13,997 bases of DNA, taken from positions 1 through 13,997 of the IMG/VR virus record IMGVR_UViG_2609459774_000005, one strand, 5' to 3'. This DNA comes from a virus. Its lineage: Duplodnaviria > Heunggongvirae > Uroviricota > Caudoviricetes. The position numbers and the translations under genes are program-made. How positions within the stretch are numbered: position 1 is the first letter of the stretch; each line of letters begins with the position of its first letter. This document shows positions 1 to 13,997 of the stretch, piece after piece. The notes beneath the pieces are model-generated. The model saw nothing but the letters and a program-made list of their open reading frames with translations. It did not search any database and had not been told where the DNA came from.

Positions 1-1314
1 CTAACCCACTGATTTTAATAAGTCTCTTGTGTCACTTTGGTGACCATGGGACATCATTGGGACATAATCTGCCAGCTTCTGATTCAGCATTGCGATCTGT
101 TCTGCATTACTGTCAGTCATCCATGCTCCGTATACATTGAATACCATCTGGGCACTTGCATGGCCCATCTGGCTGGCAATGAAGCTTGGGTTTGCTCCGG
201 CAGATAATGACCAGCACGCATAAGTGTGTCGTGACTGGTATGCTTTCCGGTGCCTGATGCCCGCACGCTTAACGGCTGTTTCCCATGAGTCGCCAATAGA
301 ATCTACCTTGTAGATAAAACCGACCTGTTTGCTTTTTCTAACCACCTGGGGGTTAAATACGAAAGTACATTCATGATTCACTGAGCGCCCATATTCACGT
401 AGTTGAACCTTGATGTGGTGCTGCTTACCCAGTCTTGTCATTTCAGCCTGATTTTTCAGGACACTGATAGCGGGCTGGATAAGATGCACAACCCTGTTTG
501 TACTTGCTTCAGTTTTAGGTAGAGTGAACTCACTGAGTTTCGTATAATTGCGCCTGATAGTAATAGTTCCTGCTTTCAGATCGATATCTTCCCAGGCCAG
601 GGAGACCAGTTCACCGTGACGCATTCCTGTGTACACAGCCAATGACCACAGGTTTTTCGTCTGCTGATGTCGGCAAGCATCTATCAGGCGAATAAATTCG
701 TCACGAGTTAGCGGATCTGGCTCTGCCCTGGCTCTTTTAAGAGGCTTAATTCCCTGGAAGGGATTTGCTTCTAAGTAACCGTGATCTGCAGCAAACTGAA
801 ACATTCCAGCGATAGTTGTCATGTAATAATTTACAGTAACGACGCTCCGTCCTTTTGCTGCTGCTTTGTTTTTCGTTGAATTCTGATACCCAGTCAGTAA
901 ATCTTTCCTGATATACAGCAATTCCTCTTTGGTTACCGATGACACCAGTCTGCTGCCTCCAATTTTCGGAACCATCGTTCTTGCAACGGATTCATAGCGA
1001 TTGAATGCATTTGCAGAGATTTCCATTCGTTTCAGATCCAGCCACTTTTCTTCAAGTTCCTTCACCGTAATTTCTTTTTTACTTACCCCAAAAGCCTGAA
1101 GGTTGGGGGAGTCAGGGAACTGTGCAGCATAATCAAAGCTTCCTGTGCGGATGGCAAAACATACCGATGTCCTCAGTTCCCCGGCGATCTTCCTGTTCTT
1201 GGCAGTGTCAGGGACACCAAGATTTTCCCTGACACGTTTACCTTTAAAATTAAACCAGATGCGTAATGTGCCGCCGTGGTTTTCGACGCCTGTTGGATAT
1301 TTGACTTTATCCAT
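1..1314 (-). CDS. int: Tyrosine recombinase / phage integrase (437 aa)
   Basis: Complete ORF whose stop codon is the first three bases of the window. The C-terminal region has the H-x-x-R box (SRHTYA) and a downstream Tyr (NVYGAWM) typical of tyrosine recombinases. Its position and orientation directly downstream of an excisionase-like gene fit an integration module. Confidence 0.9.
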   Translation of the reverse strand: MDKVKYPTGVENHGGTLRIWFNFKGKRVRENLGVPDTAKNRKIAGELRTSVCFAIRTGSFDYAAQFPDSPNLQAFGVSKKEITVKELEEKWLDLKRMEISANAFNRYESVARTMVPKIGGSRLVSSVTKEELLYIRKDLLTGYQNSTKNKAAAKGRSVVTVNYYMTTIAGMFQFAADHGYLEANPFQGIKPLKRARAEPDPLTRDEFIRLIDACRHQQTKNLWSLAVYTGMRHGELVSLAWEDIDLKAGTITIRRNYTKLSEFTLPKTEASTNRVVHLIQPAISVLKNQAEMTRLGKQHHIKVQLREYGRSVNHECTFVFNPQVVRKSKQVGFIYKVDSIGDSWETAVKRAGIRHRKAYQSRHTYACWSLSAGANPSFIASQMGHASAQMVFNVYGAWMTDSNAEQIAMLNQKLADYVPMMSHGHQSDTRDLLKSVG

Positions 1315-1369
1315 TGATACCTCCAGACGCCCAAGAGCGATACGAGCTTACATATTTCATGATATTAAA

Positions 1370-1606
1370 TCACCTGGGTTGTTTGTTTTTCATTGAGGCG
1401 ACCCAGGCATCTATTGCTTTTCTGTTATACATACATTCACTGGAAGGCTTTGGATTACCGTCTGGTGATACGTGAATATACTCTCTTCCAACCATCCAGC
1501 ATTCTTTCCGGGCCCGAAGAATTGTGCCTGGTTTGAGCCCGGTAATTGCGATAAGAACGCTTTCACAAACCCATTCATTGGGAGCCAGTTGAATCACATT
1601 GCCCAT
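1370..1606 (-). CDS. xis: Excisionase (lambda Xis-like, 78 aa)
   Basis: Small basic protein immediately upstream of int on the same strand. The segment ILRARKECWMVGREYIHV resembles the lambda Xis region ending in DGREYLFH. Confidence 0.7.
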   Translation of the reverse strand: MGNVIQLAPNEWVCESVLIAITGLKPGTILRARKECWMVGREYIHVSPDGNPKPSSECMYNRKAIDAWVASMKNKQPR

Positions 1607-1764
1607 GCATTACCTCACACAACACTCAGCCCACGGCAGTGGCACCACACTTCAAACATTCGTTTCACAATTTCACGACAGTAGAAGCCGTCAACATCTC
1701 GCGTCAGGTCATAGCGATTGCCGTAACGCTGGCGCACCCATAGCTCAAACGCTTTATTCATTCT

Positions 1765-2007
1765 TTACTTCCTTTTCATGGCCCGTAATTTTTTCAGATG
1801 AGCTTCCTGCTCTGTTTCTGCCAGAATTTGTCGGTATTCCTGGTGATCAATCCGTTCAAACAGTTCATTGAAATCGTTTATTTTTACTGACTGTGTTCGC
1901 CCATCAATTCTTCTGTACAACACAGTGTTGTTTATGCAGCGAATAATTATTACCGGGTAACCGGCACTGTCGGTATACAGTTGTCCCTGATTAATCAAAG
2001 CGAACAT
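1765..2007 (-). CDS. Hypothetical protein (80 aa)
   Basis: The ORF-track reading frame is trimmed to the internal ATG at 2007, which is preceded by AGGAGA. The longer start would overlap the upstream gene by about 90 nt. Confidence 0.5.
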   Translation of the reverse strand: MFALINQGQLYTDSAGYPVIIIRCINNTVLYRRIDGRTQSVKINDFNELFERIDHQEYRQILAETEQEAHLKKLRAMKRK

Positions 2008-2038
2008 TTTTTCTCCTGCTCTCTGAATAGTGAGAACT

Positions 2039-2410
2039 TCAGAGCCGTATGTTTGTAGCGGGTTCAATACTGATAATTTCTGCTGAGATAAGCATCCCGG
2101 CAAGCCAGAGTTCTCCGGACAGGTCTTCATCCTGACATATCAGTTCGCCAATATTAATGGTGGCCATGATATCTGTTTCCCCTGTACGCTCATCCTCGAC
2201 TTCTTCATAAGGCAGTGTTGCGTACAGGCTTTCAATAGCGCAACTGATAACATCGAGTCCGGTCAGGTTGCCACCAACAGTGACTTCGAATGTTTCGCGG
2301 TATTCCCATTGCCCGAAAGTTAATCGAATGGTTTGTTTCGCCATGCGTCCGCATGACGTCAGATTTGGGTCATAGTTCATTATTTGCGGTTGAGTATTAT
2401 GAGTGTTCAT
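2039..2410 (-). CDS. Hypothetical acidic protein (123 aa)
   Basis: Intact ORF in the leftward operon with no motif I recognise. Confidence 0.5.
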   Translation of the reverse strand: MNTHNTQPQIMNYDPNLTSCGRMAKQTIRLTFGQWEYRETFEVTVGGNLTGLDVISCAIESLYATLPYEEVEDERTGETDIMATINIGELICQDEDLSGELWLAGMLISAEIISIEPATNIRL

Positions 2411-2451
2411 CTGCTTTTCCCTTAGCCCGACGGCCTGCCGGGCATATTAAG

Positions 2452-3279
2452 TTATTTAACCTGGATAAATGGTGTATTGGCACCGCTGGTCATGTATTGC
2501 GGCAGCGTGCCGTTCCATTTATTGATGGCTTCCAGCTCCATAACACCGGGGTTCTGACGCAGAGCTTCACCGCGTAAACGAATAGCATCGGCTTCAGCCT
2601 GGGCTTTTGTGCGAATCGCATCAGCCTGTCCGGCAGCTTCCGCGCGCAACATGTTGGCTTCCGCTTCGCGCTGTTTTACTTCCTGCTCGCGTTGCAGAGT
2701 TTTCTGGTTCGCCGTGACTTTGGCATTAATGCTGTCGATAACAGTAGGCGGGTACTCCGGCTTACCCACATATGAGAGGCTTATTACCTGAATACCGATG
2801 GGCGTCATTTCTTCCTGAATGTCTTTAAGAGCTGCATCCAGCAGCTCAGGCTTGCCGCCGTCGATAAATTTGTCGGTGGTCATTTTGCTGGTCAGTCGGT
2901 TGAGTGCGTCGGCTATCTTCTGGCGCAGGTCGGTGTCGGTAATGTCGTCCACGCCTTTGCGGTAGGTCTGAAAGACTGTGGTAACTTTGGATGGATCAAC
3001 CTTGTAGGCTACTCCGATGTGGTAACCAATGGTTGTTCCATCGCTCATCTGGAAACTGAATGGATCATCGTAGGTCTTCATCTGCTTAAAGGTCGGGAAG
3101 ATATAAACTTCAGTGTTCCAGCCTGTCCAGTAGCGACCAACACCGACCACTTCACCGACGCCTTTGTCGTCGCCAAGTTTGTTGACTTTGATGCCCACAT
3201 TACCAGGCTCAACACGATCACAACCGACAAGGCCAATGGCAGGCAGAACAATGGCTAAAGAAAAAATAATTTTTTTCAT
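2452..3279 (-). CDS. SPFH / band-7 (prohibitin-flotillin-like) lipoprotein (275 aa)
   Basis: N-terminal signal peptide with lipobox LVGC (MKKIIFSLAIVLPAIGLVGC). The central region has SPFH-like character and the C-terminus is an Ala/Glu/Arg/Gln-rich coiled coil (QREQEVKQREAEANMLRAEAAGQADAIRTKAQAEADAIRLRGEALRQ), as in band-7 proteins. The start codon overlaps the stop of the upstream membrane ORF (ATGA) and is preceded by AAGGAT. Confidence 0.85.
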   Translation of the reverse strand: MKKIIFSLAIVLPAIGLVGCDRVEPGNVGIKVNKLGDDKGVGEVVGVGRYWTGWNTEVYIFPTFKQMKTYDDPFSFQMSDGTTIGYHIGVAYKVDPSKVTTVFQTYRKGVDDITDTDLRQKIADALNRLTSKMTTDKFIDGGKPELLDAALKDIQEEMTPIGIQVISLSYVGKPEYPPTVIDSINAKVTANQKTLQREQEVKQREAEANMLRAEAAGQADAIRTKAQAEADAIRLRGEALRQNPGVMELEAINKWNGTLPQYMTSGANTPFIQVK

Positions 3280-3464
3280 CTTTTATCCTTAGTGAAAGAA
3301 AGCCCCTTATAAATGGTATAAATACATGGCGGGGTTAGAAACGTCAGTGCAAAGCCAGAAATCACCGCTACCGTATCCTTCATTGATATCAGAAACGGGA
3401 CGAGCAATCCGTAAATACATGCGATAATTGCCAGTGATATAACTATTCTGAAATAAATGTTCAT
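3276..3464 (-). CDS. Small two-helix membrane protein (62 aa), candidate NfeD-like partner of the SPFH protein
   Basis: Two hydrophobic stretches (IVISLAIIACIYGLLVPFLI and VAVISGFALTFLTPPCIYTIY). Strong RBS (GGAGG) before the ATG; stop overlaps the SPFH start. Confidence 0.6.
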   Translation of the reverse strand: MNIYFRIVISLAIIACIYGLLVPFLISMKDTVAVISGFALTFLTPPCIYTIYKGLSFTKDKR

Positions 3465-3524
3465 GGTCCTCCTGCTGTATTCAGCTTGCCTTATTTAATT
3501 GCGTCATGGTTAATTTCGTTTACG

Positions 3525-3917
3525 TCAGAATGGTTTTGTTGCCATCAGTTCGTAATATCCGGCGCTCCATGTGTCATATTTTCTGAACCATTTTTCTGTA
3601 TACTGTTTCCTGGCGATGAGTCTGCGCAGTCGTCTGATTGTTCGCTGGTGTGCGCGGGTGTACTCTGTGGTTGATTCTCCACGTTTCCATATTTCATTCC
3701 CGTTGAAGATAAAACGCTTGTCAGGATGGCGTTGTCGGAATCCTGAACGTTCAAAAGCGCGGGTGGTCATAAAGAATGCCAGGTAACGAATTGCCGTTTT
3801 TCGAGTGAGGCATTTTTTTGTTCTTCCGTGATGTGTTACAAAAAATAACGGGCCGACGGGTGTATCATGTTTCTGTAATGCCTGGTCAATGGCGCTGGCG
3901 GTGCGGTTGTCGATCAT
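3525..3917 (-). CDS. Hypothetical basic protein (130 aa)
   Basis: Intact ORF whose start overlaps the stop of the upstream gene (ATGA). Arg/Lys-rich C-terminus. Confidence 0.5.
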   Translation of the reverse strand: MIDNRTASAIDQALQKHDTPVGPLFFVTHHGRTKKCLTRKTAIRYLAFFMTTRAFERSGFRQRHPDKRFIFNGNEIWKRGESTTEYTRAHQRTIRRLRRLIARKQYTEKWFRKYDTWSAGYYELMATKPF

Positions 3918-4132
3918 TTCTTTATTTCTCCCGAATAACGTTCATGACTCATTATTTCCCAGTTCCGGCCGTCGTCTTTCGATAACAGCCGCCAGCGACG
4001 GTTAACCTTCAGACTGAGATATCCGTTGCGCTGTATCCGATGCGGGAATATACGTCGGCATCTGTACCGCCGCAGGACCAGCAACGCCTGCTGGTGGACC
4101 CACTCAGGAATTCGCGTTGCTGTTAATGTCAC
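3914..4132 (-). CDS. Hypothetical basic protein (72 aa), apparent GTG start
   Basis: The ORF track starts at a GTG at 4132 that is preceded by AGGAGG at a 6 nt spacing. It overlaps the upstream gene by 29 nt. The protein is Arg-rich, so the call is uncertain. Confidence 0.4.
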   Translation of the reverse strand: MTLTATRIPEWVHQQALLVLRRYRCRRIFPHRIQRNGYLSLKVNRRWRLLSKDDGRNWEIMSHERYSGEIKK

Positions 4133-4319
4133 TGGTTTCCTCCTGAGCAGGTGCTGTTATCTGATACCCCGCTCTTTCTGCCAGCCATATGAATGTATCC
4201 ATGCTGGCAATCAGCTCTCCATCGCGGACTTTGCAGACATCTGTTACCTGGCCATTTTCAATTGTCATAACGATCTGCACTTTTTCGTGCACAACAGATA
4301 CAGGGGATAAATTAGCCAT
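4104..4319 (-). CDS. Hypothetical protein (71 aa)
   Basis: Intact ORF whose ATG overlaps the stop of the upstream gene by 1 nt (TGATG). Confidence 0.45.
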   Translation of the reverse strand: MANLSPVSVVHEKVQIVMTIENGQVTDVCKVRDGELIASMDTFIWLAERAGYQITAPAQEETSDINSNANS

Positions 4320-4678
4320 CAGTTAATTCCTCCGCTGATATATTTTTCTTTCGCGTAATCAATAACCTCTTGTAAAAGGTTGTCTATAATTAACTTTCCG
4401 GTTTCAGCCTGGTATTCAGTATGTTGATTAATCCCGATGGCATTCTGGTATGCAGTTCGGAATTCTGTTTCACCCTCCACTCGACCCAATTCACCACGGG
4501 TAATATCTTCAAAGCGCAACAGCAACTGGTTTATAAACTGTTCTGTTATTTCTATGGTCGTAATGTTCCCATCCAGAAGGTCAACAATAAGCAGATCACC
4601 ACCTGTTTTACGTTTTATTCGATGGAGTGCTGCAACAGCTATACGGCGACGATATGTATTAATGGGTTCATGTGTCAT
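4319..4678 (-). CDS. Hypothetical protein (119 aa), first gene of a four-gene coupled cluster
   Basis: Intact ORF downstream of a 195 bp intergenic region (4679-4873). Confidence 0.5.
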   Translation of the reverse strand: MTHEPINTYRRRIAVAALHRIKRKTGGDLLIVDLLDGNITTIEITEQFINQLLLRFEDITRGELGRVEGETEFRTAYQNAIGINQHTEYQAETGKLIIDNLLQEVIDYAKEKYISGGIN

Positions 4679-4873
4679 TTGTTATTTCCCGTATGCTTTA
4701 CGCAGAAATAAGCAGGCAATATGTATGTAATTTTCACCGTATTGTGCAATAAGACAGGCGGTCTTGTGTGATGCCATATTCTTTATAAAAGTCATAATAA
4801 ATCCTCCTGTGGATTAAGATTGTAACAATCCCCGGCGATAAAACCGCAATAAACGTTCAGAGCATATTTGTTG

Positions 4874-5239
4874 TTATTGCGCTAATTCTTTTTCGGCAGC
4901 AGTTTTTGCATACTCACATGCAAAATTCAGAATTTCGCTGCCGAGTGTTTTCGTTTCGTGATTACTGGACATATGTAATACCTGTGTTGCATGCAATAAA
5001 TGATAAACATTTACCGCAAATGAATCAGGCTCCAGACAAATGCCTTCGTAATTATCTTGCTGTGAGGTTGTTTCTGTCATTGCTTCTGAAGTGCATGCGA
5101 GCCTGTTTTTGACAATTCTCTTTCCTCTAATCACTATATCGGCAACATCTATTGCCTTTACAACCTCCGGGAGAAGTTCCGGGTTTGTATAATCAAAGTC
5201 ATCAACATGGAGAACAGTTATGTTTTCGAACTTTTTCAT
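4874..5239 (-). CDS. Hypothetical protein (121 aa) in an AT-rich island
   Basis: Intact ORF with AGGA before the ATG. Visibly AT-rich codon usage compared with neighbouring genes. Confidence 0.5.
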   Translation of the reverse strand: MKKFENITVLHVDDFDYTNPELLPEVVKAIDVADIVIRGKRIVKNRLACTSEAMTETTSQQDNYEGICLEPDSFAVNVYHLLHATQVLHMSSNHETKTLGSEILNFACEYAKTAAEKELAQ

Positions 5240-5418
5240 GGCTTCCTCAGCTGACTTATATGTCCTGCTATATAGCGAGTCTCAGAAGTGTTTTCATATT
5301 GAGACTGTTTCCGCAATGATTGATAATCAGTTACCGGATGCTTATCCGTGTCCGGCGCACGACCACACGTAGCCGCGTGTTGGTCCCCATTTTCAATTCA
5401 GCTCTCAATGGAGGATAA

Positions 5419-5646
5419 ATGATTAACGCAGAGCAACTCGAAAAAGAGATTTCAGAACTCAAAAAAGAATTAATTTGGCACAAAGTTGCTATCTCCGCAT
5501 TAATTCGTCAGGTAGTTTCACCTGAAGATAAAGTAAAGTTTATGAAGCAGTTCTCATCTTCATCAAAGGAGTTTTTCACTGACGAGGTTCATCCAGAGGC
5601 TGGATTTTGGATCCGTCAATTATTTTCGCAAGATAAGCGTAAATAG
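5419..5646 (+). CDS. Hypothetical small protein (75 aa), possible coiled coil
   Basis: Strong RBS (GGAGG, 5 nt spacer) before the ATG. The N-terminus (EQLEKEISELKKELIWHKVAISALIRQ) looks heptad-like. Its 3' end overlaps the convergent gene 5576-5818 by 71 nt. Confidence 0.4.
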   Translation: MINAEQLEKEISELKKELIWHKVAISALIRQVVSPEDKVKFMKQFSSSSKEFFTDEVHPEAGFWIRQLFSQDKRK

Positions 5647-5818
5647 CGTCATCAATACTCGCGTCGCTCTTGAATTTAAGAGCGATGCTCTTTATATCCT
5701 CTGAAATTATTACCAGATCACCATATGTTATATTTTTATTATTGCGCGCAGTGCTTTTTTGTATGAAATCAAGCAATTCACCAATGAGACAAATATGGTA
5801 AGCATTACAGTTTTTCAT
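5576..5818 (-). CDS. Hypothetical protein (80 aa), translationally coupled to the upstream HTH-domain gene
   Basis: Trimmed to the internal ATG at 5818, which overlaps the stop of the 5815-6276 gene (ATGA). AT-rich. Confidence 0.5.
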   Translation of the reverse strand: MKNCNAYHICLIGELLDFIQKSTARNNKNITYGDLVIISEDIKSIALKFKSDASIDDAIYAYLAKIIDGSKIQPLDEPRQ

Positions 5819-6276
5819 GCGCAGATATCCTTTGCTGCCGTTTCGCCAGTTAACAGCCACATCGCATCGCAGCCAAGAATATTTGCCAGTGGGATAAGCA
5901 TACTGATAGTTGGTTCATACTCTCCGCTCTCCCACTGGATGATAATTTCTTCATCGAGATCGAGCAGCCTGGCGAGTTCGGCGGTTGTTAAGCCGCAGGC
6001 TTCGCGTTGGGTGCGAAGGTTAACCAGCCAGCTTTCAGGGAAGGATTGTTTTTGTTGCGCAGGAGAAGCAGCAGATAGAGCATATTCATGGATAAATTCC
6101 ATTACCTCAATGCCCAGTTCCTTTGAGCGAGCACAATCCAGAAGATGGAATGTGCGTACAGCACTTAGCAAATTTGCAATATTTAATGCAAAGGAATCAA
6201 GTTCTAAGCCCTTAAGCGTAACACAGCCGCAGTTGATAAAATTAGTTGTTTCTGGAGTTGCTTTTAGTGTCTTCAT
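5815..6276 (-). CDS. Two-domain protein (153 aa): unknown N-terminal domain plus C-terminal XRE/Cro-type helix-turn-helix
   Basis: The C-terminal segment LRTQREACGLTTAELARLLDLDEEIIIQWESGEYEPTISMLIPLANILGCDAMWLL matches the XRE-family HTH pattern. Start set at the ATG at 6276, which has GGTGGA upstream. Confidence 0.65.
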   Translation of the reverse strand: MKTLKATPETTNFINCGCVTLKGLELDSFALNIANLLSAVRTFHLLDCARSKELGIEVMEFIHEYALSAASPAQQKQSFPESWLVNLRTQREACGLTTAELARLLDLDEEIIIQWESGEYEPTISMLIPLANILGCDAMWLLTGETAAKDICA

Positions 6277-6324
6277 ATATCCACCAACAATTTTAAATTG
6301 AATCAAATCAAGTTATAATTGATG

Positions 6325-6358
6325 GTGCGATATTATGTTTTGGGAAATAGCCTGTCAA
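6325..6358 (-). promoter_or_regulatory. Candidate sigma70 promoter for the HTH-protein/partner operon
   Basis: On the minus strand, a perfect TTGACA (6358-6353) is followed about 16-17 nt later by an ATAATA/TAATAT -10-like hexamer. It lies between the cI terminator and the HTH gene start. Confidence 0.45.
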
Positions 6359-6388
6359 GAAAAAATTGATATCGTATATTTCAGGCAG

Positions 6389-6409
6389 AAAAAAAACGGG
6401 CAAAGCCCG
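6389..6409 (-). terminator. Intrinsic terminator directly downstream of the repressor gene
   Basis: On the minus strand, hairpin CGGGC-TTT-GCCCG is followed by a run of eight T, 14 nt after the cI stop. Confidence 0.6.
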
Positions 6410-6422
6410 TTAGAATCAAAGA

Positions 6423-7112
6423 CTAACCAAATCTGTTTATGTTGAATGGTACTGATGAGATCACTTTAGACTGGATATAAAGCAGAGCTAACCCCTCTTT
6501 TTCGATGCTCCATGGTTGATAATTGGGGTTATCAGATAACACCATGATTTTGCTTCCAATTTTTTGAAGCCTTTTCACGTAGCATTCTCCATCAAAACAA
6601 AATGCATAAATACCATCGCCATCAAAATAAGTTACTGTCTTATCAAGAAAAAGAAGGTCGCCAGGTGAGATTGTGGGAGCCATACTGTCTCCTCTGGCGT
6701 TACCTATTTCTATATTTTTGAATGCCCGATTTCCAACAAGACGTCGGGCATATTCAGGATCAAGTTCTATTGAGCGCACTACATCTATCAAGTCACCACG
6801 GACATGAGTTCCATCACCGCAACTAAACTCAACATCAAGGACATTAAACACGACGCTATCTGTTCTTGTCTGGTGTTTCTCTTGCGAGGAAAAGGTTGGT
6901 GAGGAGTCTTCACCTAAGAACCAGGATTGTGGATAACCGCTAATCTCTGATAAATGCGCGAGCTTATCACTCCGTGGAAATGTTTTTCCTGTTGTCCAGT
7001 ACTGCACTGATTGCGCACTCACACCTAACTTGCGGGCCAGTTGAGCCTGAGTCCATCCTTTTGCTTTCAGCATCGCGGCTATTCGATTTTCCGTGTTTTT
7101 GACGTTCTTCAT
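6423..7112 (-). CDS. cI: CI-like phage repressor (HTH plus LexA/S24 peptidase domain, 229 aa)
   Basis: N-terminal HTH (TQAQLARKLGVSAQSVQYWTTGKTFP) and C-terminal S24-like region with the GDSM motif (NARGDSMAPTISPGD) and a downstream Lys (CYVKRL). Divergent from a Cro-like gene. Start trimmed to the ATG at 7112; the track's start at 7118 is a TTG. Confidence 0.9.
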   Translation of the reverse strand: MKNVKNTENRIAAMLKAKGWTQAQLARKLGVSAQSVQYWTTGKTFPRSDKLAHLSEISGYPQSWFLGEDSSPTFSSQEKHQTRTDSVVFNVLDVEFSCGDGTHVRGDLIDVVRSIELDPEYARRLVGNRAFKNIEIGNARGDSMAPTISPGDLLFLDKTVTYFDGDGIYAFCFDGECYVKRLQKIGSKIMVLSDNPNYQPWSIEKEGLALLYIQSKVISSVPFNINRFG

Positions 7113-7245
7113 GACCAAATCCTGTGGGTTTCTTTACAAGGATAAATCTTTACTTGATTTTAGTGTATTCGATCCTTTTGTAACTTGCATGTTAATTTAA
7201 ACTTGATGTATTCTTGATTTATAAAGTTAATATTGGTGCTTTGTT
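7113..7245. promoter_or_regulatory. Divergent immunity-region promoter/operator segment between the cI-like and Cro-like genes
   Basis: AT-rich intergenic region with repeated CTTGAT-containing motifs (ACTTGATTTTAG, ACTTGATGTAT, TCTTGATTTAT) and an imperfect inverted repeat TTACAAGGAT ... ATCCTTTTGTAA. Exact -35/-10 hexamers could not be assigned. Confidence 0.5.
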
Positions 7246-7536
7246 ATGGAAGGAAATGATTACGACAAACTTCGTGCATTAATTGCGCAAAATGCCATAG
7301 CGCGAAATCTTGGTGTGACGCCGCAAGCGGTGAATCAGTGGTTTTCAAAAAGCACAATTCCTGCTCGTTTCGTTTTACGAGTATGTGAAGTAGTTGCATG
7401 GAAGGTTACGCCTCATGGCTTAAGGCCAGATCTTTATCCTCACCCTGAAGATGGAATTCCTAACTTGTTACGCAAAAGCCTAAATCCAAGTTCACCACAC
7501 AGAGCGGATGGAATACACGCAGGAGATAAACAATGA
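7246..7536 (+). CDS. cro: Cro-like / YdaS-family transcriptional regulator (96 aa)
   Basis: Segment LGVTPQAVNQWFSKSTIPARFVLRVCEVVAWKVTPHGLRPDLYP fits the YdaS/Cro-like family pattern. First rightward gene, divergent from cI. Confidence 0.75.
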   Translation: MEGNDYDKLRALIAQNAIARNLGVTPQAVNQWFSKSTIPARFVLRVCEVVAWKVTPHGLRPDLYPHPEDGIPNLLRKSLNPSSPHRADGIHAGDKQ

Positions 7537-8240
7537 ACATCGCAATTTTTAACGGCAAAGTATCCATGACCAGCGTTGAAATTGCAGAGCTGGTGGGTAA
7601 ACGTCATGACAATGTGAAACGCACTATTGAAACATTAGCCAAAGGTGGCGTTGTCCGGTCTCCTCAAATTGAGGTTTCCGAAAGAATCAATAACTTAGGT
7701 TTTAAAGTTCAATATGAGCATTACCTGTTTGAAGGAGAACAAGGTAAGCGCGACAGCATCATTGTCGTCGCACAGCTCTGTCCTGAATTCACTGCTCGCC
7801 TGGTAGATCGCTGGCGCGAACTGGAAGAACAGATCCGTAAGCCAATGAGCGAAATCGAAATGGTTGCCGCGATGGCTCTTGAAGCAGTTCGTCAGCAGAA
7901 ACGGATCACTCAGGTGGAAGAAAAAGTCAGCCACGTTGCTGAAACAGTCGAGCAAATTAAAAAGGGCACTATTCGTGAGGGCTATGCCGGATATCGCCAA
8001 CTGAAAGCAAAAACCGGTTTGTCAGATGATAAATGCCGCAATCTGGTGAACGCCTATCAGATTCCTACAGACACCCATGAGTTCATGACGCCGGACGGAT
8101 TGTTGTCACGTCGAGCAATTGTTGCTGTGGAACCGTTTATGGCTGCTTTTTATCGGGTTATGGAGGAAGCAGAACCGCGAGGGACTCGCTGGTATCACCC
8201 GAAAATGGGGTTATTTCAGGTTATTGGTTGGCAGCGGTGA
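7533..8240 (+). CDS. Rha-family phage regulatory protein (235 aa)
   Basis: N-terminus (GKVSMTSVEIAELVGKRHDNVKRTIETL) matches the Rha-domain signature. The start overlaps the cro stop (ATGA). Confidence 0.8.
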   Translation: MNIAIFNGKVSMTSVEIAELVGKRHDNVKRTIETLAKGGVVRSPQIEVSERINNLGFKVQYEHYLFEGEQGKRDSIIVVAQLCPEFTARLVDRWRELEEQIRKPMSEIEMVAAMALEAVRQQKRITQVEEKVSHVAETVEQIKKGTIREGYAGYRQLKAKTGLSDDKCRNLVNAYQIPTDTHEFMTPDGLLSRRAIVAVEPFMAAFYRVMEEAEPRGTRWYHPKMGLFQVIGWQR

Positions 8241-8264
8241 AAAAAAAGCCGGGAGTAACCCGGC
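8240..8264 (-). terminator. Hairpin with T-run on the minus strand (A-run on the plus strand) immediately after the Rha gene
   Basis: Plus strand reads eight A then GCCGGG-agtaa-CCCGGC with no downstream T-run. In the minus orientation it is a canonical intrinsic terminator; for plus-strand transcripts it lacks the U-tract. Confidence 0.5.
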
Positions 8265-8371
8265 TCACTCAACATCAATAACGGGGAGCTGTTTCGCATA
8301 AAACGGTTCCGAAACATCCAAGAACAGTTCTAAAGATATCAGCAGCTATATGATCATTTCAAGACCAAATA

Positions 8372-8483
8372 TTGATTCTGCAATTTCGGGACGTTACACT
8401 GTCTCCGCACCTTATAAAGCGGGTGCCGGGGGTCGCAGCCCGGAATTGCATACGGCGATATACGACGCGCCAGCGTCTTTTTT
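8372..8483 (+). ncRNA. Candidate leader or small RNA unit: promoter, two hairpins and an intrinsic terminator
   Basis: TTGATT (8372-8377), 17 nt spacer, TACACT (8395-8400). Downstream hairpins GCACC/GGTGC (8407-8426) and CCGGG/CCCGG (8426-8443), then terminator GACGC-gcca-GCGTC followed by six T (8464-8483). Predicted transcript about 75-80 nt. Not verified by folding. Confidence 0.3.
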
Positions 8484-8649
8484 ATCGTCCGCGCTCACGC
8501 ACGCCAGAATTATGGTGGGCTGGGCAGGGGAGCCGAAAGGCTCGCCGGTTTCCGTATGCGCCGGTACTGCGAACCCTGTTCAGTCTGCCACCAGTGAGTT
8601 TCGCAGCTCCGGTGGTGGAAGTTATCCATTGCATACGGAGGCTGCCATC

Positions 8650-9012
8650 ATGGCTACAGTCCCAACTTCCCCATACCTGAAAATTGAAGTTGTCAACGGC
8701 AAGGCCGTTATTTTCTCCCTGCATGTTGCCTGCCACTTTAAGCGCATGCACCAGAACATCGTCGACAAAATCGAGTATCTGAACTGCTCACGCGAGTTTT
8801 TTACCCGCAATTTCATACCGGGTACTTATCACATCTACGGTGACTCCCTGCGTGGTTATTACATCACCCTTGATGGCCTGATGATGCTTCAGCTTGGGTT
8901 AAGTCTGCGCACAATGCGGTACTACGAGAGCTGCATTGAAGCATTCCATGAGGCAGAGAACAGCCTGAATCTTACCGCTTTCTGCTGTAATCAATGGGAG
9001 GTGCGCCCATGA
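8650..9012 (+). CDS. Hypothetical protein (120 aa), first gene of the replication operon
   Basis: Start assigned to the ATG at 8650, preceded by GGAGG at 8637-8641. The upstream 100 in-frame codons are low-complexity Ala/Gly/Ser/Pro-rich and are treated as noncoding. Confidence 0.5.
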   Translation: MATVPTSPYLKIEVVNGKAVIFSLHVACHFKRMHQNIVDKIEYLNCSREFFTRNFIPGTYHIYGDSLRGYYITLDGLMMLQLGLSLRTMRYYESCIEAFHEAENSLNLTAFCCNQWEVRP

Positions 9013-9233
9013 TTCGCCGCGTCGTTAATTCCCTGTATCACCGATACAACCGTTGCCCCCGTGTGGGGCAGTGGTTCGCCACCAGCAACGGTCACGTTCT
9101 GCGGGTTTGCCTAGTCAACGCTGAAAGCCAGAAAGTCGTGTGCGAACTACAGGGGCGTAGCTACACCATCAGTTACCCTCTGGCGGTATTTCTGTCTGGA
9201 AAAATGTTTAAGCGTCTGGGAGGTGTGGCGTGA
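9009..9233 (+). CDS. Hypothetical Cys-containing small protein (74 aa)
   Basis: ATG at 9009 preceded by GGGAGGTG and overlapping the upstream stop. Confidence 0.5.
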   Translation: MIRRVVNSLYHRYNRCPRVGQWFATSNGHVLRVCLVNAESQKVVCELQGRSYTISYPLAVFLSGKMFKRLGGVA

Positions 9234-9529
9234 ACTGTTTTCAGTTTGTGTGCGGATGTGCTTTCGATAACCCGATTCAGCGCCTGATTATGTTGCGTGT
9301 TTTGATGTCGGGTTCTTCAGACGGTGAAGGCGAGAGAGTTATTGATCATCAGGTGCTTGCTGATTTCTGCTGTTGTTCTAAGCAAGCGATATTCAGGGAA
9401 ACCCTGGCACTGGAAAGAGCTGGTTATCTTCATATCCAAAAAATTGCAACGCTTACTATTGATGCAAAAGCCAGACTACAACCTGCGCGTGGCTACACAA
9501 TTCTCATGCCGCGGAAGGAGGTTGTATGA
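9230..9529 (+). CDS. Hypothetical protein (99 aa), GTG start, possible winged-helix DNA-binding protein
   Basis: GTG at 9230 preceded by GGAGGTG (6 nt spacer) and overlapping the upstream stop (GTGA). The winged-helix guess rests only on the segment SKQAIFRETLALERAGYL. Confidence 0.45.
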   Translation: MNCFQFVCGCAFDNPIQRLIMLRVLMSGSSDGEGERVIDHQVLADFCCCSKQAIFRETLALERAGYLHIQKIATLTIDAKARLQPARGYTILMPRKEVV

Positions 9530-10518
9530 GCCGTTACGCCCCCACACCGGAAGTTATGGCTATTGGTCAAATTAATATTTCCGGCAATGTTACACCTGCG
9601 AACTGGTGGAAATATATTCGACTACCCAGTGGGCGTCCGGATGCGACGGCTATCGCTCTGCTTTCAGAGATCGTTTACTGGTACCGCCCGACAGAGGTCA
9701 GGGATGAGCACACCGGAGCGTTGCTGGGATATCGCAAGCGTTTTCAGGGCGACAAACTGCAAAGAAGCTACCAGGCGTTTGCTGAGCAGTTTGGTTTCGG
9801 GAAAAGGGAAACCGCAGATGCGCTGAAGCGTCTGCGCGATGCAGGGTTTATTACTCTGGATTTACGCACGGTGGAAATGCTCGATGGGGTGAAATGCAGC
9901 AATATTTTGTTTGTCGGGATCAACCCACAGGCAATTGCGGCCATCACCACACCTTCTTCTGTTTCGCCAGAAAGTAACAGCAATAATGCAATCAGCGATA
10001 CAGCTATTACGTTAAAACGGAACACCCCCCGACGTCATAACGGAACAGGGGATACGCCGAATGTTGATACAAATACAGAGATTACTACAGAGATTACAAC
10101 GGAGACTAAAAACACTATTGATGCATCCGCTGACGCGTCTGCGCCAGCGCGTTCTGCCCGACAGGAATATTCACCGGAATTTGAACAGGCCTGGCAGGAA
10201 TATCCCAAACGTGCTGGTGGCAATTCCAAGTCAGCAGCCTTCAAAGCCTGGAAAGCCCGTATCAGGGAGGGAATAAAACCGGAGACCATGCTTGATGGCG
10301 TGAAGCGGTATGCCGCCTGGGTACGTGCTACAGGAAATACCGGCACACAGTTCGTGAAGCAGGCTGCGACGTTCTTTGGACCCGATCGTCACTTCGAAGA
10401 TTACTGGCAACAGCCAGCCGCTCACGGAGGTGGGCGACAGCGACAGGTCGATGTCCTGGCTGGCCTGGGAGCCATGTCTGACAAATTCGGTAAATCCAGT
10501 AACAAATTGACATTCTGA
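9526..10518 (+). CDS. Phage replication initiation protein (O-like replisome organiser, 330 aa)
   Basis: N-terminal region resembles phage replisome-organiser domains. The central part is a low-complexity Thr/Glu-rich linker encoded by tandem DNA repeats. Conserved-looking C-terminal domain (EYSPEFEQAWQEYPKRAGG...FFGPDRHFEDYWQ). Start overlaps the upstream stop (ATGA). Confidence 0.75.
   Translation: MSRYAPTPEVMAIGQINISGNVTPANWWKYIRLPSGRPDATAIALLSEIVYWYRPTEVRDEHTGALLGYRKRFQGDKLQRSYQAFAEQFGFGKRETADALKRLRDAGFITLDLRTVEMLDGVKCSNILFVGINPQAIAAITTPSSVSPESNSNNAISDTAITLKRNTPRRHNGTGDTPNVDTNTEITTEITTETKNTIDASADASAPARSARQEYSPEFEQAWQEYPKRAGGNSKSAAFKAWKARIREGIKPETMLDGVKRYAAWVRATGNTGTQFVKQAATFFGPDRHFEDYWQQPAAHGGGRQRQVDVLAGLGAMSDKFGKSSNKLTF
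10075..10110 (+). repeat. Tandem 12 bp iteron-like direct repeats inside the replication initiator gene (candidate origin)
   Basis: ACAGAGATTACT (10075-10086), ACAGAGATTACA (10087-10098) and a degenerate ACGGAGACTAAA (10099-10110), followed by an A-rich stretch. They encode the TEITTEITTETK segment. Confidence 0.5.
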
Positions 10519-10519
10519 G

Positions 10520-10873
10520 GTGACAGCGATGATGACGATTGACCAACGTGAGAAACAAACAAGACTACAGGCGCGAATGGATGAGTTACGGGCAGAGATT
10601 GCATTTGCTCAGAATGGCGAAAAGCCATGGCCTTACCGTGCCTGTCGGGAATCTGAAGGGGTTGGATGCTGCGAAAAACACGGTAAATATCGTACGCATA
10701 TACTGGTGTGGGATGATCGGCAGGGGGGCGCTGTCTCAAAAATTTCCCGCTGTCGGGAGCATCACAACGAGCTTCATGCGGATCCGCTGGTATTCGAAGA
10801 AAAGCATGGTTCCCAGGTTGATTTAATTTTTCATTTTCTTGATCACGCCTTTGCAACCGGCGTGCTTGGGTAA
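10520..10873 (+). CDS. Hypothetical Cys/His-rich protein (117 aa), nin-region-like
   Basis: RBS GAGGTGA before the ATG. Clustered Cys/His residues (CRESEGVGCCEKHGKYRTH ... CREHHNELH) suggest metal binding; no definite family assigned. Confidence 0.5.
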   Translation: MTAMMTIDQREKQTRLQARMDELRAEIAFAQNGEKPWPYRACRESEGVGCCEKHGKYRTHILVWDDRQGGAVSKISRCREHHNELHADPLVFEEKHGSQVDLIFHFLDHAFATGVLG

Positions 10874-10885
10874 AAGAGGTTACTG

Positions 10886-11245
10886 ATGCGTATAGAGTTT
10901 GTTTTGCCTTATCCGCCAACGGTGAACACCTACTGGCGACGTCGTGACAACACATATTTTGTATCAAAAGCCGGTGAGCGTTATCGCCGGGATGTGGCGC
11001 TAATTGTTCGCGAGCAGCGGCTGAAATTAAACCTGTCCGGACGGCTGGCGATAAAGGTGATTGCAGAGCCACCGGATAAGCGCCGTCGTGACCTGGACAA
11101 TATTCTGAAAGCACCACTGGATGCACTGACACATGCGGGGTTGCTTATCGACGACGAGCAGTTTGATGAAATCAATATTGTGCGCGGACTGCCTGTTCCT
11201 GGTGGTCGGTTGGGGATAAAAATCACAGAGCTGGAGTGCGCATGA
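10886..11245 (+). CDS. rusA: RusA-family Holliday junction resolvase (119 aa)
   Basis: N-terminal LPYPPTVNTYWRRR and central RRRDLDNILKAPLDALTHAGLLIDD match the RusA pattern (LPWPPSNN...RRRDLDN...KA.FDAL). Typical nin-region position. Confidence 0.9.
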   Translation: MRIEFVLPYPPTVNTYWRRRDNTYFVSKAGERYRRDVALIVREQRLKLNLSGRLAIKVIAEPPDKRRRDLDNILKAPLDALTHAGLLIDDEQFDEINIVRGLPVPGGRLGIKITELECA

Positions 11246-11931
11246 ATAACCAGTATTTACAGTTTGTTCGTGAGCAGCTCATTATCGCCACCGCCGATTT
11301 GAGTGGGGCAACAAAAGGTCAGCTTGAAGCCTGGCAGGAGAATGCCATGTTTGATACAGGACGTTACAGACGTAAAAAAATCCGGTACCGCGATAAGGTC
11401 ACTGGAAAAATGGTAACGCTGGATAATCCACCGATCCCGGGAAAGCAATCGCTGGCGAAAGGTTCATCAATTGCCCTGGTCAGTCCGGTTGAGTTTTCGA
11501 CATCATCATGGCGACGCGCCGTTCTGTCTCTTGAAGAGCATCAGAAGGCGTGGGTGCTGTGGGTATACAGTGAAAATCCGAGTTGGGATTATCAGGTGGT
11601 CATTGCGAAATGGGCGTGGGATAAGTTTCAGGTGCATTTTGGCACCAGAAAAATTACAGGGAAAACGCTTGAGCGTCTGAAGAAATTAATCTGGCTGGCG
11701 GCGCAGGATGTCAGGGGGAGGATTACTGGGCGTGACGTCTACCAGCGACAGGAACTTGCCAGACTGTGTGGAGTTAAGCCTGACAACTGGAGCCATAATT
11801 ATGCGAACTACTGGCGTGAGATGTGCGACATTTTTAAGAAACTCGATACAGAATCCTTGATTTGCACCGTGAAAATGAGATCGCAACAAAAAGCGACCTT
11901 TTCACGACGAGATATTGCAAAAGTCAATTAA
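11242..11931 (+). CDS. Putative late-gene antiterminator (Q-like), 229 aa
   Basis: Call is by position only: last gene of the rightward early operon, immediately after rusA and immediately before a strong intrinsic terminator. No Q motif was verified. Start set at the ATG at 11242, overlapping the rusA stop (ATGA). Confidence 0.55.
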   Translation: MNNQYLQFVREQLIIATADLSGATKGQLEAWQENAMFDTGRYRRKKIRYRDKVTGKMVTLDNPPIPGKQSLAKGSSIALVSPVEFSTSSWRRAVLSLEEHQKAWVLWVYSENPSWDYQVVIAKWAWDKFQVHFGTRKITGKTLERLKKLIWLAAQDVRGRITGRDVYQRQELARLCGVKPDNWSHNYANYWREMCDIFKKLDTESLICTVKMRSQQKATFSRRDIAKVN

Positions 11932-11977
11932 ATCGCATACATTTTATGTAAATGTGATATTTTGCCGTATAGTGTGT

Positions 11978-12002
11978 AAACCCGCTTAAATGCGGGTTTT
12001 TT
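11978..12002 (+). terminator. Strong intrinsic terminator downstream of the Q-like gene
   Basis: AAACCCGC-ttaaat-GCGGGTTT followed by a T-run (11997-12002), 47 nt after the Q-like stop codon. Confidence 0.75.
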
Positions 12003-12032
12003 GCTTAACTCTGTGGACCTTTTTATCTGTAG

Positions 12033-12057
12033 TTGTAAGATATGGATATTCTTACAA
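12033..12057. promoter_or_regulatory. Perfect 8 bp inverted repeat (TTGTAAGA, 9 nt spacer, TCTTACAA) upstream of the kinase gene
   Basis: Palindrome at 12033-12057 between the terminator and the kinase start codon. Candidate operator or 5'-UTR hairpin. Confidence 0.4.
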
Positions 12058-12075
12058 TTTAGGTCGGTGAGCTTA

Positions 12076-12840
12076 ATGGAAGAACAGCACGGTAATTACT
12101 TTATAAAACGAATTCAGTTGATTGGAAGGGGTGCATTTGGCTTTGTTGAACACGTTAAGGTTTACAACCTCAACAAGGGTGAATGTGGGGATTATGCTAG
12201 AAAGGTTTTAGCCCCCGAAAAACCAGAGCTTTTGGCGCAAATAGAGCAGTTTAGAAGGCGTTTTAAAAGGGAGGTCGTGTATCAATCACATTGCGTACAT
12301 AGCAATATTGTTCCTATTTATTTGTGCGATTTGTTTGCCGAGAATCCATGGTTCATTATGGATAAAGCAGAATGTGATCTTGAGCACGAAATAACGAACA
12401 ACCTTCTTACAACAGATCAAAAAATTTCAATAGTGAAAATGGTATTAGATGGTGTAGCTCACATCCATGCGAAAGGCTATTTACACAGAGATATAAAACC
12501 ATTTAATGTCTTGCGATTTAGCGACGGAACATACAAGGTGTCTGATTTTGGTCTGGTAAAAGATACAAATCCCGAAGGGGATACCACTAAATTGACCGAG
12601 ATCGGTACCCGTATGGGAAGTACAAGATATATGGCTCCCGAGATTTTATATAATGCCGAGTATTCAGTTAAGACTGATGTTTATGCGGTGGGGCGGTTAA
12701 TTGAGGACTTAAATTTAGATGATAAAAAAATAAAGCCTATCATAGCGAAGTGTACCAGGATGGATAAAGATGATAGATATCAGACAATAGATGATGTGGC
12801 GTTTGATTTTGTGCATTCTTTTTTAAGGAGTGAGTCATGA
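12076..12840 (+). CDS. Hanks-type (eukaryotic-like) Ser/Thr protein kinase (254 aa)
   Basis: Catalytic signatures present in the canonical order: Gly-rich loop IGRGAFGFV, invariant Lys in YARKVL, alpha-C Glu in FKREV, catalytic loop LHRDIKPFN, SDFG, YMAPE, and DVYAVG. Start trimmed to the ATG at 12076. Visibly AT-rich. Confidence 0.9.
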   Translation: MEEQHGNYFIKRIQLIGRGAFGFVEHVKVYNLNKGECGDYARKVLAPEKPELLAQIEQFRRRFKREVVYQSHCVHSNIVPIYLCDLFAENPWFIMDKAECDLEHEITNNLLTTDQKISIVKMVLDGVAHIHAKGYLHRDIKPFNVLRFSDGTYKVSDFGLVKDTNPEGDTTKLTEIGTRMGSTRYMAPEILYNAEYSVKTDVYAVGRLIEDLNLDDKKIKPIIAKCTRMDKDDRYQTIDDVAFDFVHSFLRSES

Positions 12841-13580
12841 TTCAGCTGATAGCGACTTCATCATTCTCGTATCCAAAAGAACCAGGTAGGGTCAACGAAG
12901 ATTCATTGCTTCCTCCCAAAATTGTAGGGGATGGCATCTTATTTGCCGTAGCTGATGGTGTAGGTTCATACACTGGTGCCAGTCAGGCTTCATCAATGGC
13001 AATTGCTGAACTTTCAGCATTGACAAGCTTATCTTTTGACACAGTTCCGGATGTATTTGATGAAGTTAAGCGAAAGGTTATGTCGTTAGCTGATGTTAAT
13101 GATGAGTTCGATAAAGCTGCTACTACACTTACGTTTTGTTATGTTTGTGATAGCGGAATTATTATTGGTCATATTGGTGATTGTCGTTTGTATTGCATTG
13201 GAGAGAAGAAAGCATACCAATTGACGAAGGACGATACCAGGCATCAGATGCTAATTGATCAGAATATTTTTAAACCCAGAGATTTGAAGGATAAACCGGG
13301 CAAAAATATCTTAACGACGGCTATAGCCTCAAATGTTGATATGGAATACGACTGTGATTTTATCACATGGAAAGATTTACCTAGTATTAACGGGGTATAT
13401 CATCTGTGTATCATGTCTGATGGGGTTCATAACGTTTGGGAAAAACGCCCCAGATTTACATCAAATACGATGAGTAATAGTCAGAAGTTTTCTAATGGCA
13501 TTTTGCGTCGTATAGAGAGAGCCGGACCTGATGATGACTTTTCTTTAGTAAGTATAATGGTGCGTGTGACGTCAGATTAG
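12837..13580 (+). CDS. PP2C-family (PPM) Ser/Thr phosphatase (247 aa)
   Basis: PPM motifs present: VNEDS near the N-terminus, FAVADGVG (DGxGG-type metal-binding motif), IGDCRLY (GDSR-type), MSDGVHN and C-terminal GPDDDFS. The start overlaps the kinase stop (ATGA), indicating translational coupling. Confidence 0.85.
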   Translation: MIQLIATSSFSYPKEPGRVNEDSLLPPKIVGDGILFAVADGVGSYTGASQASSMAIAELSALTSLSFDTVPDVFDEVKRKVMSLADVNDEFDKAATTLTFCYVCDSGIIIGHIGDCRLYCIGEKKAYQLTKDDTRHQMLIDQNIFKPRDLKDKPGKNILTTAIASNVDMEYDCDFITWKDLPSINGVYHLCIMSDGVHNVWEKRPRFTSNTMSNSQKFSNGILRRIERAGPDDDFSLVSIMVRVTSD

Positions 13581-13650
13581 TTGTATAAACTCAGTAGGGA
13601 ATGCTAATTTCACATACAACATAGTTAAAGAAAACTTAATTTTAATGTAA

Positions 13651-13677
13651 AAAGGCTGCCCTCAGGCGGTCTTTTTA
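13651..13677. terminator. Bidirectional-looking intrinsic terminator after the phosphatase gene
   Basis: AAA-GGCTGCC-ctca-GGCGGTC-TTTTT: a 7 bp stem including two G-U wobble pairs, flanked by an A-run upstream and a T-run downstream. Confidence 0.55.
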
Positions 13678-13799
13678 TGCTCGAAAATTGATGCAGTACG
13701 TTAAACGCGCTGGTGGTTGCGAATACCGGTCTTTCAGCTTGCTGGCTTTTTAGACAAGAGTTATTGGTATGTCACGTTAACCAGAAAAGGGAAAAAGGC

Positions 13800-13997
13800 A
13801 TGCTAAAACAGCTGGATATGACCGAAACCGCCAGAGTGGTGTTTAATGAATTAAGCGTCACCGAACCGGCGACCGTCGGGGAAATTGCGCAGAATACTTA
13901 CCTTTCACGCGAACGCTGCCAGTTAATACTGACTCAGCTTGTTATGGCGGGTCTGGCAGATTATCAGTTCGGTTGTTACAGACGCCTTCCGCAGTGA
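13800..13997 (+). CDS. Small PapI/FaeA-like winged-helix regulator (65 aa)
   Basis: Start trimmed to the ATG at 13800, preceded by a purine-rich RBS. The segment EPATVGEIAQNTYLSRERCQLILTQLVMAGL resembles the PapI/FaeA family core. The stop codon is the last three bases of the window. Confidence 0.45.
   Translation: MLKQLDMTETARVVFNELSVTEPATVGEIAQNTYLSRERCQLILTQLVMAGLADYQFGCYRRLPQ

Follow-up and report, generated by a model that had tools for sequence, protein, structure and literature searches.

What controls transcription across the short interval (11932-12075) that separates a Q-like antiterminator gene from a protein kinase gene in the Caudoviricetes record IMGVR_UViG_2609459774_000005? 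We analyzed positions 1 to 13,997 of this record, and we call this whole stretch of 13,997 nt the window. It is a portion of an E. coli lambdoid prophage, and bases 11800-12200 are 100% identical to prophages of E24377A and other strains. A first-pass annotation, made from the letters of the DNA, had pointed to a strong terminator soon after the Q-like gene and to a perfect palindrome before the kinase, and had remarked on the resemblance to a Q, late promoter and terminator region while preferring to read the hairpin as the end of the early operon. We find that the interval probably holds two tandem regulatory units, namely a late switch of the phage 82 type followed by a kinase/PP2C cassette with its own signals.

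The gene that precedes the interval (11236-11931, + strand, as are the other features of the interval and of the cassette, with the stop codon TAA at 11929-11931) encodes an antiterminator of the phage 82 family. Its product matches Pfam PF06323 with an E value of 5e-84, covering profile positions 1-217 of 220, and falls in PHROG 304; the identical gene in E24377A has a RefSeq start equivalent to 11242. Of the three unrelated families of Q proteins, PF06323 is that of Q82 (PMC9388147). The protein shares 67.7% amino-acid identity with phage 82 Q, 63% with phage 434 Q and 60% with Gifsy-1 Q, and comparison with the sequences in the PDB found no relative of solved structure. A Q82-family Q is encoded directly upstream of the predicted late-promoter unit, and the Q-like gene of the first-pass annotation was correctly recognized.

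The late-promoter unit emerged from the 3′ flanks of Q82-family Q genes, which we gathered from annotated phages and IMG/VR (88 loci, 37 distinct sequences). The distinct flanks share a common layout without gaps: TTGCAAAA, a 17-bp spacer, TAxxxT (or CAxxxT), six bases, and then AAAT-n-TGATAT..GCC. The first element is invariant in all 37, and the -10 hexamer keeps its position in all 37 while varying among TACATT, TATATT, TATGTT, TACGTT, TATACT and others. By this layout the 3′ end of Q in the window carries a predicted sigma-70 promoter, pR′, with its hexamers 17 bp apart: a -35 TTGCAA at 11915-11920, within the last Q codons, and a -10 TACATT at 11938-11943. The predicted start, placed by the layout of 82 pR′, is an AAA with +1 at 11950. 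A predicted sigma-70-dependent pause element follows at 11950-11966, with TG at +6/+7 (11955-11956), TATTTT at +9 to +14 (11958-11963) and GCC at +15 to +17 (11964-11966), and then comes an AT-rich pre-pause segment (11967-11977). The hexamer TATAGT, which the first-pass annotation had considered as the best -10 candidate and then doubted, is present at 11968-11973, and the doubt was well placed: because it corresponds to +19 to +24, in the transcribed AT-rich segment before the predicted pause, it would not be a promoter element. The alternative offered there, that the promoter lies elsewhere, also held, as the predicted pR′ is about 30 nt upstream of TATAGT with its -35 inside Q. It had been missed because a -10 was sought downstream of the stop codon, while the Q82-family promoter straddles the stop codon.

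The published phage 82 system provides the closest template for these predictions. At 82 pR′, transcription starts at AAA with stuttering and pauses at +25/+26, with U at +25; the -10-like pause element is nearer to TATAAT than that of lambda and has an extended -10, and a GCC "discriminator" at +15-17 is followed by an AT-rich stretch (PMC5001585). The Q-binding element (QBE) of 82 lies between -35 and -10, and the segment from -31 to +30 includes the QBE as well as the pause element (PMC4914094). The deposited phage 82 record ends at the Q stop codon, and PhiR47_2 served as a proxy for the published 82 pR′ and QBE sequences. Its Q is 96.9% identical to 82 Q, the 3′ end of its Q gene is identical to that of 82, and the downstream sequence shows all published 82 pR′ details, including G at +24 and U at +25. 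The window and PhiR47_2 are identical at 16 of 17 positions from +1 to +17. By analogy with the 82 pause at +25/+26, the pause in the window is predicted at about +24 to +26 (11973-11975), and the QBE region is predicted, solely by analogy to 82, in the spacer at 11919-11937 (about -31 to -13).

Some points weigh against this assignment. The predicted pR′ matches the sigma-70 consensus at 8/12 positions, below the 9/12 cut-off of our generic scan, which missed it; the comparison with 82 runs through a proxy; and the window has G at the predicted +25, a base that disfavours pausing in 82, so the pause may be at +24 or +26 instead of +25. The spacer presumed to hold the QBE is kept within Q subtypes, yet it also codes for the Q C terminus, which confounds its conservation. 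We infer promoter activity, the pause site and Q dependence from the conserved architecture as a whole.

The -35 region of pR′, ATATTGCAAAA (11912-11922), and the pause element with its flank, TTTTGCCGTAT (11960-11970), form an imperfect inverted repeat whose cores, TTGCAAAA and TTTTGC, are near-invariant across the Q82 family. Two sigma-70-contacting elements may resemble each other here by coincidence, or the repeat may be tied to Q dimer binding.

The terminator noted by the first-pass annotation was found by our terminator scan at 11978-12002 (+29 to +53), its stem beginning 46 nt past the Q stop codon. The stem arms are AAACCCGC (11978-11985) and GCGGGTTT (11992-11999), the loop is TTAAAT, and the T-run extends to 12002, with the hairpin itself at +29 to +50. 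The RNA fold reaches -13.1 kcal/mol (z -4.2), and none of 200 shuffles was as stable. Among Q82 relatives the stems covary (CCCGC/GCGGG, CTGCC/GGCGG, CCACC/GGTGG) and the loops differ. We read this hairpin as the late terminator tR′, and an RNA ending there would be about 52-55 nt long.

The distance between pR′ and tR′ divides the family. Only four variants have a short leader, with the hairpin from +28/29, namely the window, another E. coli allele, a single IMG/VR contig and phage 434; in every other Q82-type variant the hairpin starts from +45-50. The short leader is a natural variant and not a defect, because the isolated phage 434 has the same short spacing and its hairpin is annotated as a terminator in its record. 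A segment, GATTTTGTACGCGATGGCAAAG, is conserved at about +18 to +44, between the pause site and tR′, in long-leader relatives (L151, L164, L191 and most of L134-L199), and this segment is missing in the window, in allele B, in allele C (L108) and in phage 434. It may form a hairpin UUGCC/GGCAA, with UGCCA/UGGCA in PhiR47_2 and UGCUGCC/GGCGGCA in Klebsiella phage 2b. The short form, that of the kinase-bearing alleles and phage 434, and the long form are natural variants with which to study how near a terminator may be to the Q-loading pause. In one contig (L110/L133, IMGVR_UViG_2529292726_000025), a G to A change at the equivalent of 11984 turns the left arm of tR′ into AAACCCAC and breaks a G-C pair of the stem, which could be a leaky-terminator variant or a sequencing error.

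The second unit begins where homology to the relatives stops. Alignment with long-leader, kinase-less Q82 relatives ends at +17 (11966) and resumes at ~13650, past the stop codon of the phosphatase gene, and past the second terminator about 120 nt and a small open reading frame (ORF) are the same as those that stand directly after tR′ in the kinase-less relatives. Relative to these, 11967-13649 is therefore an insertion that carries the leader and the kinase and PP2C genes, the two genes being bracketed by two terminators, a cassette with defined junctions against otherwise collinear relatives. The kinase gene (12076-12840, with its ATG at 12076 and not 12077) encodes a Hanks-type Ser/Thr protein kinase of 254 amino acids (Pfam Pkinase, E 2e-33; PHROG 2361). 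Its Shine-Dalgarno sequence GGTGA (12066-12070) lies 5 nt before the ATG, and GTCGGTG is conserved in the leaders of kinases that are 75-100% identical. The PP2C-family phosphatase gene (12837-13580; Pfam PP2C_2, E 2e-14) starts in overlap with the kinase stop codon. A second intrinsic terminator (13654-13676; GGCTGCC / CTCA / GGCGGTC followed by five T; fold -18.3 kcal/mol, z -3.7) closes the cassette, and the small ORF of 65 amino acids follows at 13800-13997 (PHROG 331, function unknown, with a RefSeq annotation in E24377A). This ORF is the first gene past tR′ in the kinase-less relatives (alignment A4). A longer reading of it gives a weak winged-helix match (TrmB, E 0.0015, below cut-off), and in E24377A its stop codon is overlapped by a terminator-like hairpin (L001 18185-18202), which runs past the last base of the window.

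These boundaries also bear on the rival view preferred by the first-pass annotation, in which the hairpin at 11978-12002 is only the terminator of the early, Q-containing operon, with the late promoter at another place such as downstream of the kinase module. The generic promoter scan (at least 9/12 matches) found nothing on the + strand between 11285 and 12714, as this view would expect, and the hairpin would indeed stop unmodified early read-through. It leaves unexplained, however, why a full and conserved 82-type promoter and pause architecture stands immediately upstream of the hairpin and why kinase-less relatives have the same promoter followed directly by tR′ and the late genes, and the region past the cassette (13650-13800) has a terminator and not a promoter. 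We therefore give very little weight to an early-operon terminator with a distant late promoter, and the resemblance to a Q, late promoter and terminator region is best accounted for by an 82-type unit in which the hairpin would be tR′.

The cassette genes form a conserved pair. Kinase and PP2C genes occur together in every homologous locus examined, down to about 33% identity. At 58-100% identity the pair lies between a Q gene and a holin gene. All three Q families are represented in this position: Q82 here, Q21 (PF06530) in Raoultella (L200/L201) and Q-lambda (PF03589) in Yersinia (L206-L208). More distant copies follow lysozyme or Rz genes, a CI-like repressor gene, or KilA-N, N-like or MT-A70 genes; the loci compared included L219-L275 from IMG/VR. 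In each of the 10 contexts checked, PP2C is followed by an intrinsic terminator, and the stems of these covary; the cassette is present in 50 of 5426 complete E. coli genomes. In E24377A, the kinase, PP2C and 65-amino-acid ORF are followed by a DNA methyltransferase gene, three tRNA genes, several terminators, holin genes and an endolysin gene.

The terminator after PP2C, taken at 13652-13676, looks hybrid: its 5′ half, AAGGCTGCC, resembles the 3′ terminator of the cassette elsewhere (L203 1768-1791), and GGCGGT..TTTTTATGC, which makes up its 3′ half and tail, is similar to the tR′ resident in kinase-less relatives (L151). This suggests that the cassette joined the phage by recombination within similar terminators. 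The kinase domain matches the PADLOC models PD-T4-6, mad6 and Stk2; these matches cover the generic kinase domain only, and we did not assign the kinase to any of these systems. We found nothing specific in the literature on this kinase/PP2C pair.

Does the cassette also carry its own promoter? A scan for strong sigma-70 promoters (at least 9/12 matches) found none between tR′ and the kinase. Comparison of kinase leaders was more informative: among 32 non-redundant leaders, 18 have the motif GTAnnnT at 35-47 nt before the start codon, against 2.7 ± 1.6 expected from shuffles (maximum 9 in 2000 trials), and other 13-nt windows taken from these sequences hold 1-5. In 15 of the 18 leaders the motif has a TnG 16-18 bp upstream, as do only 19% of the remaining GTAnnnT sites at these loci (p 9e-9). 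In leaders of kinases that are 75-100% identical, GTAAnAT, the core of the left arm of the palindrome, is invariant, and the right arm varies (alignment A2). The window would accordingly place a putative -10 TAAGAT at 12036-12041, a putative -35 TGGACC at 12014-12019, 16 bp upstream and at the conserved TnG position, and a start near 12048. The cassette seems to have a conserved sigma-70-like promoter geometry with a weak -35, found in kinase homologues from many phage contexts, from which we infer activity.

The weakness of TGGACC counts against a promoter here, as does the way the motif was found, since GTAnnnT was picked after viewing the data and the homologous leaders are not all independent. 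The same motif could instead be an element of the 5′ leader RNA or a sigma-70 pause site, with the cassette expressed by read-through only. Such a role would fit a -35 whose second position is a non-canonical A or G in 13 of 18 sites, and the constant place of the cassette in close relatives, behind Q in the late operon. It fits less well with the canonical 16-18 bp geometry with TnG upstream and with TAxxxT, the signature of a -10, and a terminator-bracketed cassette found in unrelated genomic contexts calls for a promoter of its own. We regard a role other than that of a promoter as improbable. The first-pass annotation had suggested that the kinase module is separately regulated, and this part of its reading gains support from the promoter-like element that it did not see; the evidence it gave, the palindrome, does not carry the point. 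The palindrome is confined to two near-identical E. coli alleles.

The palindrome itself is as described there: a perfect 8-9-8 repeat between terminator and kinase at 12033-12057, with arms TTGTAAGA (12033-12040) and TCTTACAA (12050-12057) and a 9-nt spacer, unique in the window. It would cover about -15 to +10 of the putative cassette promoter, and the putative -10 hexamer falls in its left arm. As RNA, the palindrome folds into a 10-bp hairpin (-8.7 kcal/mol, z -3.0), and in transcripts reading through from pR′ the full hairpin would stand 6 nt upstream of the ribosome-binding site. Perfect inverted repeats with arms of 8 bp or more and spacers of 3-15 number 6 in the window, compared with 2.7 ± 1.7 after dinucleotide shuffling, so that a palindrome of this sort is nothing rare over 14 kb; when the 72-nt leader alone was shuffled, only 34 of 5000 shuffles contained one.

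Two alleles of the leader are informative. Only two bases separate them, G to T at 12039 and C to G at 12051, and these two positions pair with each other. The change in allele B from G-C to U.G keeps the pair in + strand RNA, and the DNA symmetry and the pair on the minus strand are lost; the half-sites of allele B are TTGTAATA and TTGTAACA. If the two changes were independent, a paired double change would have a chance of about 1% (1 in 71, times 2/3, by our own calculation). A search for further palindrome-bearing leaders in E. coli genomes, by a pattern scan of metagenomes, in IMG/VR and among members of the protein clusters yielded alleles A and B only. With these two and the divergent allele C, covariation statistics are therefore impossible. 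The palindrome is a recent addition specific to the E. coli lineage.

One reading of these observations is that the palindrome is an RNA hairpin under some selection, which could form only when transcription enters from pR′, since an RNA started at the cassette promoter would lack the left arm. We favor this reading tentatively and put its chances somewhat below even. Several results speak against it. Taken in full, the leader shows no more structure than its shuffles do (z -0.66), and the predicted accessibility of the ribosome site showed no clear difference between the read-through and cassette-promoter isoforms. In allele C (L108), whose kinase is 94% identical, the left arm is kept and the right arm differs, so that only TGTA...TACA remains, and leaders of kinases that are 63-77% identical keep only the -10-like core, without the palindrome.

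We give an appreciable chance, though one clearly short of even, to a palindrome that has no function and is a product of chance or mutation around a conserved -10, for example a TGTA...TACA quasi-palindrome perfected by template switching. Only the left arm, with the -10 region, is conserved in relatives, allele C retains TGTA...TACA only, chance alone yields 2-3 perfect 8-bp inverted repeats per 14 kb, and insertions of IS1 in the leader are tolerated. A mere by-product would nonetheless make the paired A/B double substitution a coincidence of ~1%, and a template switch would give A, not G, opposite the new T.

IS1 lies in the kinase leader of two independent E. coli genomes, STEC388 (L118, ~3289-3986) and SY033 (L119, ~4104-4801). 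The insertion sites correspond to window ~12065 (L118) and ~12050 (L119); one removes everything upstream of the ribosome site and the other cuts inside the palindrome. What first appeared as leader "junctions" in H169 and H170 proved to be IS1 insertions.

The first-pass annotation had also proposed a dimeric DNA-binding protein, and an operator deserves consideration: a host or prophage dimer bound to TTGTAAGA-N9-TCTTACAA would repress the cassette promoter. The perfect dyad is centred between the putative -10 and +1, the classical position for a repressor, its outer TTGT/ACAA blocks are two helical turns apart, and a dyad this good is unlikely to arise by chance within the leader. Yet the site is single: we found no second copy in the window, and half-sites occur at chance frequency. 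The immunity-region repeats at 7120-7230 show no resemblance to it, and the same palindrome occurs in prophages with different immunity regions, which makes a phage repressor unlikely. Moreover, allele B alters both half-sites to different bases, keeping the RNA pairing and not the DNA symmetry; the centres of its arms, separated by 17 bp, fall on opposite sides of the helix; and other cassette homologues lack the site, the right arm not being conserved. We consider an operator unlikely.

By eye, we compared the palindrome with the operator consensuses of LexA, CRP, TyrR, LacI, 434 and P22, a lead and not a test, and its spacing fits none of them. Rfam searches, at gathering thresholds over the whole window and at permissive E-values over 11880-12110, returned only terminator-like noise in the interval.

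Taken together, these elements would fit the following sequence of events. A sigma-70 RNA polymerase would start at pR′ (11950) and pause near +25, where sigma-70 would re-bind the -10-like TG-n-TATTTT-GCC. Without Q, transcription would terminate at the hairpin 11978-12002, giving an RNA of ~53 nt, and the same hairpin would stop unmodified polymerases reading through from the early operon. Q bound between -35 and -10 would join the paused polymerase, which in its modified form would pass tR′ and later terminators and transcribe the kinase, the phosphatase and the lysis genes downstream. The cassette would meanwhile have its own promoter (TGGACC, 16 bp, TAAGAT, start near 12048) and its own terminator (13654-13676), so that a lysogen could make the kinase and PP2C without Q, and both could be over-expressed late in its presence. 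We also entertain a further scenario in which the hairpin distinguishes lysogenic from Q-driven transcripts, which would then differ in processing, stability or translation, and in which the kinase/PP2C pair is a recurrent, separately promoted cargo in the toxin position with three Q families; taken as a whole, this scenario is speculative and has only a small chance of being right. The role of the cassette, be it in defence, host takeover or lysogen physiology, and its dual expression become testable with these boundaries and signals.

Elsewhere in the window, Rfam matches at gathering score lie at the 5′ end of the ORF 8350-9012 (+): isrK at 8407-8483 (57 bits) and C4 antisense RNA at 8508-8595 (80 bits). 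The region 8407-8595 is an RNA-controlled anti-repressor switch of the P1/P7 c4-ant or Gifsy-1 isrK-anrP type. The isrK-anrP switch of Gifsy-1 feeds into the expression of the Q-family antiterminator AntQ, and the prophage with the matches described here also encodes a Q with 60% identity to that of Gifsy-1. Four other inverted repeats are also perfect, their arms 8-10 bp long and their spacers 6-14 nt: those at 1205-1235, 4904-4925, 5664-5685 and 6722-6751. The first has 10-bp arms and lies inside the integrase gene.

For annotation, the terminator just after Q is no puzzle, as it would be the normal tR′ of a late switch of the phage 82 type whose promoter overlaps the end of the Q gene, and a naive hunt for a -10 picks the wrong hexamer; this correction aids the annotation of thousands of PF06323 Q genes. 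The sequence features of Q, pR′, pause and tR′ fit the phage 82 system, in the short-leader variety found in 434 and with a QBE predicted by analogy. Like phage 82, the window has a PF06323 Q, a predicted TTGCAA -35 overlapping the region of the Q stop codon, an AAA start, an extended -10 TG with a -10-like TATTTT and GCC at +15-17, and then an intrinsic terminator. Unlike phage 82, its Q is only 68% identical, the spacer is AAGTCAATTAAAT where 82 has AACTGGATTAAAA, the hairpin starts from +29 instead of about +45-50, and base +25 is G and not U; unlike most relatives of the 82 type, it is also without the conserved segment between pause and terminator. Phage 434 (OL657226) comes closer, with a Q82-type Q, a short leader (hairpin from about +28) and a near-identical stem (AAACCCGC...GGGTTT), but it has no kinase cassette, and the conserved post-tR′ sequence follows directly after its terminator.

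The position of the cassette invites comparison with two further systems. In Shiga-toxin phages, stx occupies the stretch between Q/pR′/tR′ and the lysis genes and has a DNA methyltransferase gene and tRNA genes as neighbours. The cargo of the window has the same position and reading direction, with the methyltransferase, three tRNAs and holins following in E24377A, and by analogy it would be amplified by Q-dependent read-through; unlike stx, it is a Ser/Thr kinase and a PP2C phosphatase with bracketing terminators of its own and a conserved promoter-like element. Morons, as defined by Hendrix and Juhala, consist of a promoter, one or more genes and a terminator inserted between conserved phage genes. 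The cassette resembles them in its defined boundaries, in the promoter-like element upstream and the terminator downstream, and in its occurrence in several phage backbones and positions, and it differs from them in having two genes and not one, in a promoter that is putative, and in its place in the close relatives, which is always the late leader.

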